From positions 43,436,036 to 43,500,035 of the forward strand of contig JBHNWI010000380.1 in NCBI GenBank assembly GCA_048127485.1: DNA of 64,000 nucleotides, written 5' to 3'. This document shows, one piece after another, positions 10,350-64,000 of the stretch (positions within the stretch are counted from its first letter, which is position 1; every line of letters starts with the position of its first letter). A program made the translations under genes and the position numbers. Below the pieces are notes generated by a model that worked only from the letters and a program-made list of their open reading frames with translations, was not told the DNA's origin and did no database searches. This stretch comes from Solemya velum. Taxonomy: Eukaryota.

Positions 10350-10797
10350 AACTTTAGTAAAATAAAAAAATCTCGGCCATTTGAATTTTTAACGTACATT
10401 GGAATTCATGGCCCTTGCGAGAATAGCAAAATTTAGAAGTTACGAAAAGTAAATTGTTCGTTTGATTAATTAATTAAATTATATAGTGGCGGTCCGCCAC
10501 TAAATGTTAAGCCCTGCCCATATTCTGATAGGAGTCTGCGCAATTTGTTTATTTTGATTTGCTCTGTGAACGTTACTCTCTTTGCGCATGCGTTCGTCAT
10601 GAAACACCGCCTCCAAGATGGCGCGCAGCGAAGACTGACAGCTGGAAAGCATATTTTCTGGCGACTCTAAGAAAGTGTTCCGATGATAAATTTTGTTTCT
10701 TAAAAGTATACATCATATTTTTTTGATGTCTTTAATAAAAAAATAAAAAGAAATGATCGATTCGTAACCTTAAAGTTATAAGGAATACCCCTTTAAG
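10319..10797. mobile_element. MITE-like non-autonomous DNA transposon (~480 bp) with ~26-bp terminal inverted repeats, inserted in Gypsy gag. Flanks fit either a TTAA or a TA target-site duplication.
   Basis: 10319-10345 'ttaaaggggtattccttataacttta' is the exact reverse complement of 10771-10797 'taaagttataaggaataccccttta'. The interior is AT-rich and non-coding. 'TTAA' (or TA) immediately flanks both TIRs. Confidence 0.7.
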
Positions 10798-14734: not shown

Positions 14735-15868
14735 TTAGTGAATGGCAGTTACTATAGCAGTGGATACGAGTTCAGTAACAATCACTGAGGTGACGTACGT
14801 ATGAAACCGTTGTCTGTTGAAAGTTGTGCTGCCAAAAATCGCGGCGGGTTGACGGCGGGGTGCTGCGACTGAATAATGAAAGTAAATAATAGGTGCATGA
14901 GTCTGTTTCTGAGAAAACAATCGTGACAGACTGGTCGGTCTAGGCGTCGCTATGTCTTGTGGTATAATTTGCTGTTCATATATCGGCGATAAAGCGAAGC
15001 AGACTGCCAGAATGCAGGCTGGTATCTCTACCATTAGCACTAGGGTGATGATACAGGTGATGCATTTGGTGGTGAATCGACACTTCTGATCCTGTACGCT
15101 ATCTTCATCTCTGCGAAACTGCATGGATTTTCGCTTTTTAGCCATTTTGCCAATAGTATAGAACATGTGAAAGTTCAGTATTATAAGAATTAGGCATGGT
15201 ATAAATTGGACTATTATCGCTCTTACCATGAAGTAGATCTTATAAAACAACCATTTCTCAATCCGATACCATTCTGCTTCATCTACTTTGCAACCAGTTG
15301 CTGTGTCTATGCGCGTTCCCGTCGAGATAGATACTGGACTGTACGTCTTCTCAACAAACCGCATGATATGAAGAGCCAGAGAGAGGGTATAGATGGCACC
15401 AATGGTTATGGAACATGTGAACTTAGTACAAATCCGTTTTGCAGAAAATGGTTTATTTACAGCAATGTATCTTTGAACGGCTAGCAAAACGTGAAGCCAT
15501 ATCGATGCTGGCTTCGTGACAGTTGGAATATACAACGCAAAATAATCCCACAAAACGCAAAGTTCAAAAAGAAATTTGCTCCGATTATCGAAAGTGAACA
15601 TATATATAAAGACCGGGGCAGGAACAGCAGCGGTAAGGGTGGTGTTAATCGCCAATGTCATGAGAGTCATTTTTGTCGCAGAATCGCAGTGTTTTTCCGA
15701 GCCGATAACTCTCAGGAACAAGAAAACTAAAACCAAAGTAATCACTAAGACAACTGGTAAACAATATCCGTATAATGGAACGGCGAACTCCAAATCATAC
15801 CAATCTGATATTGAAATTGCCCGATGAGGTGATTCGGTTATGGGGGTTGCATTCAAATTCTGTACCAC
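14735..15868 (-). CDS. Rhodopsin-family (class A) GPCR-like coding segment spanning TM1-TM6. It is either an exon of a multi-exon gene or a truncated pseudogene. The C-terminal ~75 codons (14735-14960) look repeat-derived rather than TM7.
   Basis: N-terminal NAT glycosylation site. Six hydrophobic helices. QRY at the TM3 end (LLAVQRYIAV, a DRY analogue). Basic IL3 (KKRKSMQFRRDE). There is no in-frame ATG before TM1: the upstream in-frame codon is TAA, and the track's 'M' is GTG. There is no NPxxY/TM7. Part of a tRNA-derived SINE-like family I call SINE-T occupies 14905-14940. Confidence 0.5.
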   Translation of the reverse strand: MVQNLNATPITESPHRAISISDWYDLEFAVPLYGYCLPVVLVITLVLVFLFLRVIGSEKHCDSATKMTLMTLAINTTLTAAVPAPVFIYMFTFDNRSKFLFELCVLWDYFALYIPTVTKPASIWLHVLLAVQRYIAVNKPFSAKRICTKFTCSITIGAIYTLSLALHIMRFVEKTYSPVSISTGTRIDTATGCKVDEAEWYRIEKWLFYKIYFMVRAIIVQFIPCLILIILNFHMFYTIGKMAKKRKSMQFRRDEDSVQDQKCRFTTKCITCIITLVLMVEIPACILAVCFALSPIYEQQIIPQDIATPRPTSLSRLFSQKQTHAPIIYFHYSVAAPRRQPAAIFGSTTFNRQRFHTYVTSVIVTELVSTAIVTAIH

Positions 15869-17719: not shown

Positions 17720-18060
17720 GAGCGGTAGGGGCGTTAACCCGATGTCAGTATAATGTGAATGGGGGGATGTCATGTGGTATGCGTGTGGTATGCGTATAGC
17801 ATTCTGGTGTGACATCACCTTAAAGAGTGACATGAGTCCGCACTGTCGCAAGTAGACAAGATACAAGACCGACCAGTCTGTCACGATTGATTTCCCGGGA
17901 CCGAATATAGGGGACACAGTGAGACAGGTCGCTCTAACAAGATACTCACACTCGCATACACTTGCAAACACAGTTGTGATTCAACATGTTGTGAAGATAT
18001 AATACATATATACAGTTGTGTTCGTATATATGTCTGTGTAGCTGGCACATATGAGCTTAA
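17720..18060 (+). mobile_element. SINE-T copy, 5'-truncated (lacks tRNA head), plus orientation
   Basis: Its reverse complement aligns with 51640-51800 (…gcaagtgt.tg.gagt.tgagta…catatgtgccag.tacacagacatatatac…). Confidence 0.5.
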
Positions 18061-21736: not shown

Positions 21737-34907
<13,171 letters not shown>

Positions 34908-57500: not shown

Positions 57501-58200
57501 TTGAAATGAGGCTTAACATCATTTTCAACAATCTTTCTGCTATACAGGGCAGTGTGTGTGTGTTTCTGCACAAGTTCTTCTGTGCTTTGTCTTCATTTTC
57601 GAAGTCGGACATCCAGGTCTCTGTCATGTGCCACGCCCAATTCTGTTGACGCCATATTAGTTTGAAGGGAACCTTATGCTTTGGTTGTGTATTTCTTATA
57701 AGGGAGTGACCATATTTTTTGCAATTAGAACACTTATTACTTAGAAGATGAAAGGCAGCTTTTCTGGCCAGCACTCAAGAAAACTTTGACCTGAATGGAT
57801 GGTAAACTGGCCTACACAACCATGTGTCAACTATCAGCTGAGGTATACTAATTATCAAGGTTATCTAGAAGTTTATCGCCATTTGCATGTAGATTCATGT
57901 CATGATGATTGACAGTTCACAATATTTCAAAATTAGATCACATTGCATCAAAATTGTTACAATCACAGGGAAAAAGACTGACGTTTCTCCTCAGTGAAGA
58001 GTGATTTGGCACATAGTCTAATGAAAGTCTATTCGTGACATAATAAATTATTGTTCTGTGAATACAAGATCAAAAGTAGTTTATCCTTCATGACCAAAAT
58101 TTTCAGTGTATTGATGCAAAATCATATCCATCCAAAGGGAAGTGCAGAGAACCAAATGTTTTAAATATTGATCGGTTGAAAAATTAATCTCAAAGCTCAC

Positions 58201-58386
58201 AAGACAAGCTGCTCTGGCAGCATACTGCGATGGGTCCATCTCCAAAATCTTCTGGTAATCCCCCAAAGCATCTTCTAGCTTTTCATTCTTCTCATACAAC
58301 TCTGCCCGTCGCATTAATGCTTTCAGATAAAGTGGGTTCAGATCGAGAGCACTAGTACTGTCTTTGATGGCCTCTTCATACAGCTC
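58201..58386 (-). CDS. TTC1: TTC1 orthologue exon covering TPR2/TPR3 (ELYEEAIKDSTSALDLNPLYLKALMRRAELYEKNEKLEDALGDYQKILEMDPSQYAARAACL). Acceptor tttcag|GAG at 58387-92, donor CTT|GTGAGC at 58200.
   Basis: RRAELYEKNEKLEDALGDYQKILEMDPS closely matches, as I recall it, human TTC1 RRAELYEKTDKLDEALEDYKSILEKDPS. 62 codons, phase 0/0. Confidence 0.75.
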
Positions 58387-59549
58387 CTGAAATAACAACA
58401 ATCATTCCATTAAGATTGTCAATCGGTTTGGAAAATATGAATTATTGTGTATCATGTATTGTATTATATATATGAGAAATGCATTCAGCAGTTCACTAAT
58501 ATAAAGTGTGAACTATAAAAACTAATGCACATCTGATGTGATCATGTTCACTCAATCAATACCCCTATCAAGTATAGCCATACCAAATAAAAGTCATAAT
58601 AAATGTCGTAAAAATAACAAACAGAAGAATCAGTGATTCTCACAGAGAAACCAGTGTCTGGTCAAATCCTTTTAAGAAAAAAGATAATATTGTGTAATGG
58701 CTGAAAGTATGAAAAAGGCAAAAACTCTGCCAATAATTGAGGGAGTAGTATGCCTGATGAATATACACAATTACGTATGATGATGATGATAACTGTAAAG
58801 TTTTAACAAAAACTAAATAGAACTGAGGGACCAGTTGTCTTGAAAAGATGAGAAGGCTAAAACTATGACAAGGGCAAGAACTCACGAACAGCACACCTGA
58901 TGAATGTGGCTAGGTAAGATGGTCATGATAACATTATTATGAACAGAACTGAGCGACTAATGTTTAAAAAAATTGCATCTACAGACAAGTACCAGATGCA
59001 ACATGTTCACCACTCTTTACTGTATTTTCTTGAAAGAAGAATTAATCTCCATTAAATGAGGCATAGAGAATCATATTTAACTTGAAATTGAGGATTACCA
59101 TAACACATGGATCTTCTTGACTTTGTGTGTATCAAAACTGAACAAAATATTTGAACTGCGAAAAATGAATGGTGTAGTTTTCATTAGCAATTCATGTATG
59201 TTATTACTAACTAATACTGTTATTCCACAGAAAAAACTCCTGCTAAATATTAAGCTAGGGTTCTCCAATATGTTCAGAGCCCTTGTGTATTTTTAAAAAA
59301 CAAGATCACACCTATCTGTCAACCCGATAATAACACAAGTCACAGATGCAGGCTCCAGGTCATTGTTTAATGACTCTTCCCATGAAAATCTAATATAAAG
59401 TACATTTTAGCCTTAGGTTACACAGTAACATGGTAAATGTGATAATTTGTTTCAAACTTGCCAATCTGCATACATTCAATTAAATCTCATTTAAACATGA
59501 TGAAAGATGACTGAAATTTATTATATTCTCGGTACTAGCGTATGTTTAC

Positions 59550-59723: not shown

Positions 59724-60425
59724 CTTTAATTTAAAGAAGAATTCATATATGTGTCAATAGTCACTGAGTATGAAACTTAGAAGACTGCAATATCATGCAT
59801 AAATATTCTTTTTTTTTAAATGATAATCTGTATTATTAAAAAAATGTATTATATTTGAAAAACAACAATAATCTTGAGCACATCCAGAATTATATGCATA
59901 TATATGTGTCTGCAGGGTGATAAATGGCAACACCATGACCCTGAAGAGAATTTCACTAAACACACAAATGCATTTAGGTAACACATAAAAAACAACAGAA
60001 ACATATTAGCTGACCCATAGTAAGCCATTCAAAATTAATCAGCCTAAGCCAATCAATTAGAACATATAGTTATGCATACAAATTTCGAAGAGGTTGATGC
60101 AAGCAATGATTCACCACTCCATGTAGATAGAATGTTACCATTTACATAATAATGTTAGGGATTTAGTGACCAAATAACAATTAGAATGTATATATGTGAC
60201 AGCATTACTGAACTGAAAAAAATGGAGTAATGGGGGTTGTATGTTGGTTTTGAGGCCTGCACATTTGGACAGGTCATAAAATATGAAAACATTTATTTGG
60301 GAATGCAATGCAGAAAATCATTTGCATACACTCCCTATATAGCGGAAAGATTTCTGGGAAAAAATATAATTTTTAATTTAAACCCATTTAATAACTCTAA
60401 TTCAACTATTGTTTTGAATACTTAC

Positions 60426-60971
60426 TTTCTTTTCTTCCTCAGTCATTTTATCCTCCTGCTGTTTCCTGTGTTCTTCATCATCGTCCTCTTCACCTTCATC
60501 AGCAGAATGGTAGGACCCCTCATCTTCAGTATCTGTGCTAGATATGCTCCCCTCTACATCATTAATAATGTCTTTACAAAAATCTGCACTACAATCGTCA
60601 TCACAATCTTTTACAATTACAGTTTCTGTAATTTTGCTTTTTTCAGTGTCAACTGTTATCAAATTTGATGTATCTTCAGAAACAGATTTATTAGCTCCTT
60701 CATCACATTCCAATTTTATTTTTGTGTGCTCGATGTCTGAATCAATGTGGAAATTATTATCCGTTACTTGTGTTCCTGTTTTCTCACTTCCATCAATGTG
60801 AATATCAATATAGTCTGCAGAGTTGCCTCCCCTTTTTACTGAGCTACATGTCGATACATTAGTCTGAACTCCCTCTGTCTCTGCAGTTCGAGATTTTTCA
60901 GATTCATCTACTCCAACTTCCTGAAAAGATCTTCCTAACTTCTCAACTGCATCTTCATAAATCTCTGCCAT
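60426..60971 (-). CDS. TTC1: TTC1 orthologue first coding exon: acidic, Asp/Glu/Ser-rich N-terminal region. It starts at ATG 60971 (aaggATGG) and ends at donor AAA|GTAAGT.
   Basis: MAEIYEDAVEKLGRSFQEV…DEGSYHSADEGEEDDDEEHRKQQEDKMTEEEKK. There is a perfect GTAAGT donor at 60420-60425. The acidic N-terminus is characteristic of TTC1. Confidence 0.65.
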
Positions 60972-61092
60972 CCTTCCTCCCACTTTTTTGGCAACTGTAA
61001 TGGGATAAGTGACATACATGCAATACCATGTAAATAATATACAACTGATACATATACATGTACATGCTTGTATATTGATGTTACCTATATTA

Positions 61093-61497: not shown

Positions 61498-62696
61498 AAA
61501 ATCATATCCTGCTTTATCCACTAAACCTGGTCCATATGGGCTTCACAGCCTAATATATGCCATAAATCAACCAAGTGCAGCCTTGCGAATCAGCGGTAGC
61601 ATTCAGCAATGCCATGATTGCTGGTGTGATTGCTGTTTACTTCATCCATAAGCCTGACTGCAAATAGCGTATGACCACCTGGAATGGCAAAAAAACTATT
61701 GGTCTCTTGTGTCTGATTTTGTTTGGACATTCACAATGGTCATAGGAGTGTGTGGAGGGAGCCAGGACAAAGATACAGCTTGAGCTTGGTGGCAGAGCTT
61801 GAGGAGGCAGTGTGATGGTATGGGGGTGGGATATTATTAGCGGGTTGTACAGAAATGGTAGCCATTAGGAATTGAATACTGAATGCTCTCCGATATTGGG
61901 ATGAAATTCTTAACCCAGTTGTGAGGTTCTTTGCAGGTGCAATTGGTCCATAGTTCATTTCAATAGATGATAATGCCCATCCTCACATGGCTCATGTGGT
62001 TAATGAGTACCAAGAACGGGGGAATATTGAGAGATAGAATGGCCTGCTGGATATTCATTAGGTTTTGGCAATGTGAAATGCTAACTTTGTTTCCATATGG
62101 ACATTAATTTATCTCTTGTTCAACACAAAAAATAATCAACAGTGAACACATAATAATAAATAGAGAGATGAAATGTATGGTTGCATCTGAGTATGAATTT
62201 GTTAGAATTCCCAATGCCCATATTGTTCTTGGTGTTTAAGCGGAATACAGCTTTATCTGTCCATCTGGGTGATGGAGAAAGCTCTGGTGTTTGAAAGTTA
62301 GTCTTCATATCTTCTGGAATGTTCTTGGTGGGTTAATTCAACTATATCGCTGTGTACCAATAATAGACATTATATGTGCTGCATATTTTGTTTTTAACAT
62401 GTACATAATAAATATATTGATCTAATTTAGTGATTAGCCTACCTTCATACAGAAATATATTTATAATTATGGATAGTAGCTGTGAGTTATATTTTCATTG
62501 TTGATCCAAATTACAACAGAGCCTGGGATTAGGTCAATTTATTGAATAAAAATCGCACAATGAGCCCTACAGTACAAATAAAATATATGTAGCCAGATAG
62601 GCAGTAATTATAACAATCTGACCCCACAACCTACATAACAACACTAACACACATACATGATCATTAGGCCTACATAGTAGTAGTAGTACTATTACT

Positions 62697-62820
62697 AGTC
62701 CGCTAAAACTGCCCTCATATCAACGGCTCCCGATGCTCACCTAGTATGATTATACTAGTTGAGTATCGGGAGCCGTTGATTATGCCTGATACGAGGGCAG
62801 TTTTAGCAGACTAGGCCTAT
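62697..62820. repeat. Near-perfect ~120-bp palindrome (foldback/MITE-like). The arms are gtccgctaaaactgccctcatatcaacggctcccgatgctc and its reverse complement, around a palindromic loop ctagtatgattatactag.
   Basis: Direct reading. The flanks 'actattactag' / 'ctaggcctatactattag' are also related. Confidence 0.7.
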
Positions 62821-63559
62821 ACTATTAGTATTAGATCTACCACTGATTACCACATTTCAGATTCAGAATGTAGCACAAATATCCCTATGAACAGATTTCT
62901 ATGAATCAATAGGCCTACTATTCTATGGTAAATTGTGAGATCTGTTAAAGATATTGTTAACAGTGACAGCCCATTTTACATTAGTCGTCAATCATGTAGT
63001 TATAAGTTGAGTCAGATCCAGTACTGTAAAATGAAACAGAAAGTGGCTGGCTGGACAAGTTCCGCTTTGCTTAATAAAAGTAAAACACAAACCGTAAGCG
63101 GAGATGGATGTGACATTTCTTATTCTGATTACTTTAGATTCCCATTGAAGATAGTGCATGGAAAAGACCCCGCAAACCTAACTTACTTAACTTAACACGC
63201 AATTCAATGACTTAATTAAAATTGCATTCAAAGGAACAAAAATATCAATCTAAATTTATTTCCACCGACTCCAAGCTATGTAAAGAGAATAAACAAGATT
63301 TTTTTCTCAGTTTCTGCTAGCGCTTTCGCCGCTTCTACTGCTCTTCGGGCAGATTTATTCAACTGATGTGGAACCATGATGTCAATAGAGGTTATTGTTC
63401 CATACACAGGAACTGCACCCAAGGATAACAATATCTATATATACATACATATAATAAACATTGTGTCAAAAGGGTATCTAGGGGAAATTATGTATATAAA
63501 TTATTAGCAAAATATCGCCACTGAAATTCAGCTAGGATTCTCAAAAACTCCCCTTTCTC

Positions 63560-63636
63560 CATCGTCGGTAACCCACGGCCGATGATCATGATGAAGTGAG
63601 AAACGTAACGTAATCGGCCGTGGGTTACCGACGATG
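63560..63636. mobile_element. Miniature 77-bp inverted-repeat element: two perfect 24-bp TIRs (catcgtcggtaacccacggccgat / atcggccgtgggttaccgacgatg) around a 29-bp core. A 9-bp TSD ccctttctc flanks it (63551-63559 and 63637-63645).
   Basis: An exact reverse-complement TIR pair and an exact 9-bp direct duplication immediately outside both TIRs. Confidence 0.75.
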
Positions 63637-63852
63637 CCCTTTCTCTGACTTAACGAGATTTTCATAAAAACCACTTCTTGTGTTTCTAAAGGCAGATACT
63701 ACATGGAATACATGCAAACTATTGGGTAAACGACGGGGTATCCAAAAACTTTTGTGATGAGTATTAATTGGTTGATATATATTAATTTGCACAATCATAT
63801 TGAGATAATGTTCATTCAATATAATATTATTTCAAAACGATTGCACAACTAA

Positions 63853-64000
63853 GGATGGGTGGATGGATGGATGGATGGATGGATGGATGGATGGATGGAT
63901 GGATGGATGGATGGATGGATGGATGGATGGATGGATGGATGGATGGATGGATGGATGGATGGATGCATGGATGCATGGATGGATGGGATGGATGATGTGG
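63853..64000. repeat. (GGAT)n / (ATGG)n microsatellite, ~35 units, degenerating at the window edge
   Basis: Direct reading. Confidence 0.95.

Follow-up and report, generated by a model that had tools for sequence, protein, structure and literature searches.

The 64-kb stretch of DNA analysed here (hereafter the window) comes from Solemya velum, a protobranch bivalve, and contains both host genes and several kinds of repeats (Table 1). A minus-strand ORF (60402-61019) includes the first coding exon of KAL5017636.1, annotated as "hypothetical protein ScPMuIL_007225 [Solemya velum]", a TTC1-like TPR protein to which it is identical residue for residue. It is this exon that identifies the host, the best matches of the GPCR (33%) and the LINE (47%) having been uninformative about the taxon. 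The 77-bp element that is the subject of this report lies 2.6 kb 5' of the TTC1-like start codon, in AT-rich non-coding DNA whose flanks are unique within the window. The sole overlapping contig from another individual (Logan contig L002, run SRR5025426, 915 bp) is 98.5% identical at the TTC1-like exons and ends 2.4 kb short of the element. Its predicted residues differ from those of the window at 4 of 205 positions, which indicates high heterozygosity. Exact look-ups in the assembly index returned no record for five small ORFs beside or across the element and the exon-1 ORF, for 14 further window ORFs or alternative starts, or for the LINE and LTR ORFs of the window.

Several other features were recorded in the same DNA. 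The uninterrupted LINE ORF2 carries endonuclease, reverse transcriptase and RNase H domains; its nearest database proteins are ~47% identical, one of them filed under the MAG of a lucinid-clam symbiont, presumably as host contamination. A pol fragment of an LTR-retrotransposon is also present. An intronless ORF encodes a rhodopsin-type GPCR that is ~33% identical to arthropod sex-peptide/MIP receptors, and one arm of a perfect 24-nt inverted repeat falls inside this ORF, with the other 2.9 kb off. A perfect 26-nt inverted repeat delimits a candidate MITE of ~478 bp, whose TTAA target would suit the piggyBac or Kolobok type. The 13-kb tandem array comprises ~717 copies of an 18-bp unit at 85% matches and is very strongly skewed between strands, at about -0.44 for GC and +0.33 for AT. 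As it is open in several frames, it could be either a minisatellite or a giant hexapeptide-repeat exon. Closer to the element, at a distance of 0.7 kb, an imperfect palindrome of ~160 bp (74% self-complementary over 170 nt) is possibly another decayed foldback or MITE, and a microsatellite beginning 217 bp downstream of the element runs nearly to the end of the window.

Table 1. Positions of the 77-bp element, its flanks and other features of the window (1-based, window coordinates).
Feature	Position	Strand	Remarks
Left TSD copy, CCCTTTCTC	63551-63559	.	Exact 9-mer directly abutting the element
Left TIR, CATCGTCGGTAACCCACGGCCGAT	63560-63583	+	AcademH-type terminus, 5'-C; 20-21/24 against the termini of AcademH-1_CGi, -6_CVi and -8_CVi
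29-nt core, minus-strand reading TACGTTACGTTTCTCACTTCATCATGATC	63584-63612	-	Reads as native subterminal spacer of the right-hand end
Right TIR, ATCGGCCGTGGGTTACCGACGATG on the plus strand, 3'-G terminus	63613-63636	-	63636 is the last base similar to the second locus
Right TSD copy, CCCTTTCTC	63637-63645	.	Exact 9-mer directly abutting the element
TTC1-like TPR gene exons (ScPMuIL_007225)	60426-60971 and 58081-58401	-	KAL5017636.1
LINE ORF2	2026-5919	-	1297 aa
Perfect 26-nt inverted repeat	10319-10344 / 10771-10796		Starts TTAAAGGGG; 426 nt between arms
Rhodopsin-type GPCR ORF	14735-15868	-	
Perfect 24-nt inverted repeat	14918-14941 / 17866-17889		
Tandem array	21892-34840		18-bp unit CAGTCCTGACACACCAGC
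Imperfect palindrome	62675-62833		
(GGAT)35 microsatellite	63853-63994		

Structure and boundaries of the 77-bp element

Read in order, positions 63551-63645 comprise CCCTTTCTC / CATCGTCGGTAACCCACGGCCGAT / GATCATGATGAAGTGAGAAACGTAACGTA / ATCGGCCGTGGGTTACCGACGATG / CCCTTTCTC. A repeat finder delimited the element itself as 63560-63636 (77 bp), with two 24-nt arms that are 100% complementary and 29 nt between them. The flanking 9-mer CCCTTTCTC occurs only twice in the 64-kb window when both strands are counted, and both occurrences abut the element. This duplication is not extendable on either side (c versus g upstream, c versus t downstream), and agreement of the flanks at 9/9 fixed positions would be expected by chance with a probability of ~4e-6. 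Four perfect inverted repeats measuring 13 nt or more were found within 5 kb in the window, and only the 63560/63636 pair has a flanking direct repeat of at least 2 bp. Allowing 3 mismatches, or as many as 6 substitutions, brought up no further match to the 24-mer elsewhere in the window, and none of 100 shuffles contained one.

The outer limits of the element could also be set without reference to the duplication. Similarity to a second Solemya locus, represented by contigs L001 and L003 and described below, stops at the outer base of the 24-mer, which fixes both the boundary and the 9-bp length of the TSD independently of the TSD itself. Coding capacity is absent, the longest ORF through the element being a chance ORF of 48 aa. 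At 77 bp the non-coding element falls within the size range of MITEs (< ~800 bp), and it has the TIRs (24/24) and flanking TSD (9/9) expected of them. An earlier note on this DNA had described perfect 24-bp TIRs with an exact 9-bp TSD and had called the whole a miniature transposon. The repeats hold to the base, far beyond chance, and the element is a non-coding cut-and-paste insertion with genuine TIRs and a genuine 9-bp TSD.

A second family member at an unrelated locus

An exact scan of a metagenome collection with the 24-mer gave one match, in contig JYMV01006665.1 (L001), which represents an unrelated Solemya locus. There, 26 of 27 nt are shared with the window, and no similarity extends past the outermost base of the 24-mer. 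Using the ORFs of L001, the second locus was obtained from other assemblies (L003-L012, including two long contigs of 287 kb and 284 kb). The 24-mer is present once in each of the six contigs that cover the site (L001, L003, L004, L005, L008, and L010).

The second copy is an element of 330 bp (L003 7750-8079) in which the 24-mer is intact at one end and the other end is decayed. At a distance of 330 bp inward of the 24-mer, the sequence reads ...GTTGACCGACGGTG / ACAAGTATT. When reverse-complemented, this decayed end (CACCGTCGGTCAAC) aligns with the 13 outermost nt of the terminus if one mismatch and one indel are allowed, and the flanks of the copy (ACGAATATT / ACAAGTATT) constitute a 9-bp TSD with 7/9 positions alike. 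When the 12.5 kb downstream were shuffled 3000 times, a terminus-like match arose at a rate of 0.29 per shuffle, while one combined with a 7/9 flank match never did (0/3000). The decayed terminus and the flanks together therefore show that the 330-bp element at the second locus, though decayed, is complete and has a 9-bp TSD. The alternative that it is a one-ended remnant was rejected on account of the decayed right end and the 7/9 TSD 330 bp away. The same structure was found in six haplotypes whose surrounding 1.2 kb differs by 0.1-2%, so the second copy is older than the window copy and fixed in that sample.

Direct comparison of the 77-bp and 330-bp elements revealed unrelated interiors, with the ends alone common to both. 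The 29-nt core showed weak similarity to the subterminal region of the second copy (p about 0.03-0.08), a relationship that emerged clearly only by way of oyster consensus sequences (see below). The 330-bp copy also has the subterminal CATCACCCGTG motif. By the earlier note, a larger low-copy palindrome without other copies would have counted against a transposon; one further family member does lie at an unrelated locus. Neither the TIR string nor accession JYMV01 turned up in the literature.

In the DNA examined, no autonomous S. velum element bearing these ends came to light, and a six-frame Pfam scan of 3.6 kb beside the second copy found no domain and no transposase. A 628-aa ORF in L004 was considered as a transposase and rejected as low-complexity (weak Cornifin-like match). 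This ORF is included in ~2.3 kb (L004 10845-12731) that has no counterpart in L003, an insertion or repeat-expansion polymorphism between the two Solemya assemblies. The locus also contains a minisatellite (L003 8340-8750, corresponding to L001 about 2650-3030) with TGTGTGACGACAAAACA-like units of ~17-19 bp. Its length varies between assemblies and accounts for most of the apparent divergence among L001, L003, and L004.

Superfamily, origin and rival explanations

AcademH transposons produce TSDs of 9-10 bp in animals and have 5'-pyrimidine...3'-purine termini, with many families described in oysters and non-autonomous relatives in scallop (Kojima 2020, PMC7165386). In that study, non-autonomous families were assigned by similarity of the terminal regions together with TSD length (PMC7165386). 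The Solemya elements have both kinds of property. Their TSDs are 9 bp long (9/9 in the window copy, 7/9 over 9 bp in the second copy), and the ends of the 77-bp element are 5'-C...G-3'. Anchored at the very end, the terminus CATCGTCGGTAACCCACGG... agrees at 20-21 of 24 positions with the exact termini of AcademH-1_CGi, AcademH-6_CVi, and AcademH-8_CVi, as read from consensus sequences in machine-read PDF text with visible reading errors. These consensus sequences start catcgtcggtgacccacgtgtgat, catcgtcggaaacccacggg, and catcgtcggaaccacggttgat, respectively, and one further family ends ...aaccgtgggtttccgacgatg (PMC7165386 supplement). A genomic copy of AcademH-8_CVi is displayed with the 9-bp TSD ACCTAAATC (PMC7165386). 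With its position fixed, a match of 20/24 or better has a chance probability of ~3e-9. As the 9-mer by which the oyster families were located is expected ~5 times by chance in the supplement text, the weight of this comparison is carried by the exact terminal position and the extension to 20-21/24.

The core supplied a further point of comparison. In reverse complement, its similarity score to the AcademH-8_CVi spacer was reached in 2 of 5000 shuffles and that to the AcademH-1_CGi spacer in 12 of 5000, while the forward orientation gave no significant similarity to the oyster spacers. The left end, or filler at the junction, could account for at most ~5 nt of the core (GATCA). In the 330-bp Solemya copy, the oyster subterminal motif CATCACCCGTGGG recurs as CATCACCCGTGTG. 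The matching termini and spacer, taken with the 9-bp TSD, point to AcademH (Academ) and not Mutator as the superfamily. Judged from its sequence, the 77-bp element is very probably an insertion of a tiny non-autonomous transposon (MITE) of the AcademH lineage in S. velum.

The arrangement of these parts suggests how so short an element could have arisen. In oyster AcademH elements, each end is a module in which the terminus is followed by a spacer of ~25 nt and then by a short stretch of the terminus repeated in inverted orientation (CCCACGG...CCGTGGG). The 77-bp element comprises the terminus and spacer of the right-hand module (TACGTTACGTTTCTCACTTCATCA), five nucleotides, and then the complete opposite terminus. 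This layout marks it as the product of extreme internal deletion, in which both 24-bp ends and a single spacer have been retained, and we infer an origin by internal deletion from an autonomous AcademH element of 7-10 kb. Part of the opposite TIR would be repeated directly by the subterminal inverted copy of one end, an arrangement that could promote deletions of this kind, and short palindromes abound at the junction GATGATCATGATG. With both ends that a transposase would recognise and ~24 nt of native spacer from one of them, the element could have been mobilised by an AcademH DDE transposase supplied from another part of the genome. Such an enzyme would bind both ends and excise the element, which would then be joined into a target opened by cuts staggered by 9 bp, and their repair would yield the CCCTTTCTC duplication. 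We lean towards mobilisation in trans as a 77-bp unit.

A different history is possible, though we think it the less probable one, in which a longer or full-length AcademH element inserted, made the TSD, and then shrank in situ to 77 bp through abortive gap repair after excision or slippage between short repeats. The two family members, with common ends and unrelated interiors, are as expected of independent deletion derivatives, and the junction contains short palindromes and repeats able to mediate deletion. A second 77-bp copy was seen neither in the window nor in the metagenome collection or the second-locus assemblies, but these collections hold very little Solemya DNA, which makes the absence of further copies weak evidence. 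Against shrinkage in place, oyster AcademH derivatives of 82-87 bp are present at 27-146 copies with 97-99% identity (PMC7165386), copy numbers which imply that forms this small are mobilised in the AcademH lineage. The human element Made1, of another superfamily, sets one more precedent for this size at 80 bp (PMC1784062). A change of role after insertion, in which the element was co-opted as a gene for a hairpin RNA such as a miRNA-like precursor, is highly improbable. Its predicted RNA fold is a perfect 24-bp stem (-50.9 kcal/mol, z = -8.0), and the mir-548 family arose in this manner from Made1 (PMC1784062). Yet a strong hairpin is the automatic consequence of perfect TIRs, and an Rfam scan of the whole window matched no family. 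A 29-nt loop on a 24-bp stem is also atypical for animal pre-miRNAs. No function beyond that of a transposon relic is indicated.

Other superfamilies and other sources of the DNA fare less well than the AcademH lineage. The earlier note had favoured Mutator/MULE, considered against hAT only. A 9-bp TSD is reportedly typical of Mutator and fits the ~9 bp (8-11) of Mutator/MULE elements. TSDs of 4-10 bp are given for MuDR/IS256 (PMC10045372), and MULEs are present in all surveyed mollusc genomes (PMC10294476). However, the 9-bp TSD is equally well explained by AcademH and, being common to both, does not discriminate, while the termini and the spacer in the core match oyster AcademH families specifically. 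Mutator ends also usually start with G, where this element has C. The Mutator/MULE call is thus not supported, and a MITE of that derivation is very unlikely. For Merlin, the TSD of 8-9 bp and TIRs from 24 bp up both fit the element, but the conserved terminal 5'-GG (PMC8101967) is replaced by 5'-CA, and Merlin is rare in bivalves, where Academ is among the richest DDE superfamilies (PMC10294476). hAT and P elements make 8-bp TSDs, against 9 bp in both family members here. The hAT terminal motif is YARNG; CATCG agrees with it at 4/5 positions and has T where R is needed. We regard a Merlin-, hAT- or P-type MITE as extremely unlikely. Finally, Solemya harbours intracellular bacteria and many bacterial IS families make 9-bp TSDs, as would suit an insertion-sequence fragment from a gill symbiont. 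The exact 24-mer and the terminal 20-mer had 0 matches among 185,579 bacterial and archaeal species (one genome each), and neither plasmids and phages (blastn) nor viral contigs (exact 24-mer) contained a match, so that a bacterial or viral origin was rejected. Because the same terminus recurs at the second locus, in host-like DNA and in seven independent assemblies, an assembly artefact is unlikely as well. Symbiont fragment or artefact, this explanation retains next to no probability.

Age, meaning and related elements

The earlier note had taken the perfect TIRs and TSD for signs of a very recent insertion. Across the 24 TIR pairs and 9 TSD pairs of the 77-bp AcademH-type element (33 bp), there are 0 differences, which bounds the per-lineage divergence only weakly, at < ~4.5% (95%). 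An undamaged TIR does not by itself prove youth, since the older, fixed 330-bp copy has retained one complete 24-mer. The 7/9 TSD of that copy and its loss of the inner part of the far-end TIR make the window copy clearly the younger. The family has inserted at least twice, at different times.

The earlier note had also suggested a currently active transposase; that the 77-bp element should still be moving today, as a polymorphic insertion, seems unlikely. No empty-site allele, which would read CTCAAAAACTCCCCTTTCTCTGACTTAACGAG with a single CCCTTTCTC, was retrieved through the assembly-index look-ups. Should the element be mobile and polymorphic today, the minimal cis-requirements of AcademH would be a 24-bp TIR and ~24 nt of one subterminal spacer. 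Together with an intact autonomous S. velum copy, it would then provide the minimal donor with which to reconstitute a first AcademH transposition system. To our knowledge, the AcademH lineage has never been experimentally shown to be active, and an active element would offer a compact substrate for a transposase family without an experimental system.

Beyond annotation, the significance of the element is small: it is an ordinary member of a lineage described in 2020, in a new host. AcademH, documented among bivalves in oysters and scallop so far, would be extended to a protobranch, with the CATCGTCGG...ACCCACGG terminus and the subterminal spacer conserved from oysters to that group. The element also counsels caution in classification based on TSDs, as a 9-bp TSD in bivalves should suggest AcademH as readily as Mutator.

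Among known systems, MULE MITEs and Foldback elements resemble the 77-bp element in their 9-bp TSD and in a structure dominated by TIRs. MULE TIRs are usually longer, however, and start with G in place of C. Made1 (human, Hsmar1-derived, 80 bp) is likewise near-palindromic, with two TIRs, a very short core, and a stable hairpin if transcribed. It differs in belonging to Tc1/mariner, in duplicating a TA target, in having TIRs of 37 bp around a core of 6 bp, and in being a documented miRNA source.

The closest relatives in sequence are the oyster elements AcademH-8_CVi and AcademH-6_CVi (Crassostrea virginica) and AcademH-1_CGi (C. gigas). They have in common with the Solemya element the terminus CATCGTCGG(T/A)(A/G)ACCCACGG..GAT, 5'-C...G-3' ends, a similar subterminal spacer, and bivalve hosts, and the AcademH-8_CVi TSD is of the same length. 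The inner 4-5 nt of the Solemya TIR differ from the oyster termini, and its protobranch host lies outside the earlier study (PMC7165386). The oyster elements are autonomous, 7-10 kb long, and encode a DDE transposase and an SF2 helicase, whereas the 77-bp element has no coding capacity.

In size and organisation, the nearest counterparts are the short non-autonomous oyster families of the same lineage, which consist of two TIRs and a few nucleotides, measure ~80 bp, and have TSDs of roughly 9-10 bp. These families are multicopy, whereas two family members were seen in S. velum. The termini of AcademH-2N1_CGi and AcademH-2N1_CVi (caatctgattaa... and cagtcctgactaa..., respectively) differ from that of the Solemya element, and AcademH-N1_CGi is likened to it by size and lineage and not by its sequence. 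The earlier note had considered the element unusually small. Non-autonomous AcademH families of 82, 83, and 87 bp are, however, already catalogued in oysters: AcademH-2N1_CGi (82 bp, 27 full-length copies), AcademH-2N1_CVi (83 bp, 75 full-length copies, 99% identity), and AcademH-N1_CGi / DNA9-8_CGi (87 bp, 146 full-length copies) (PMC7165386).
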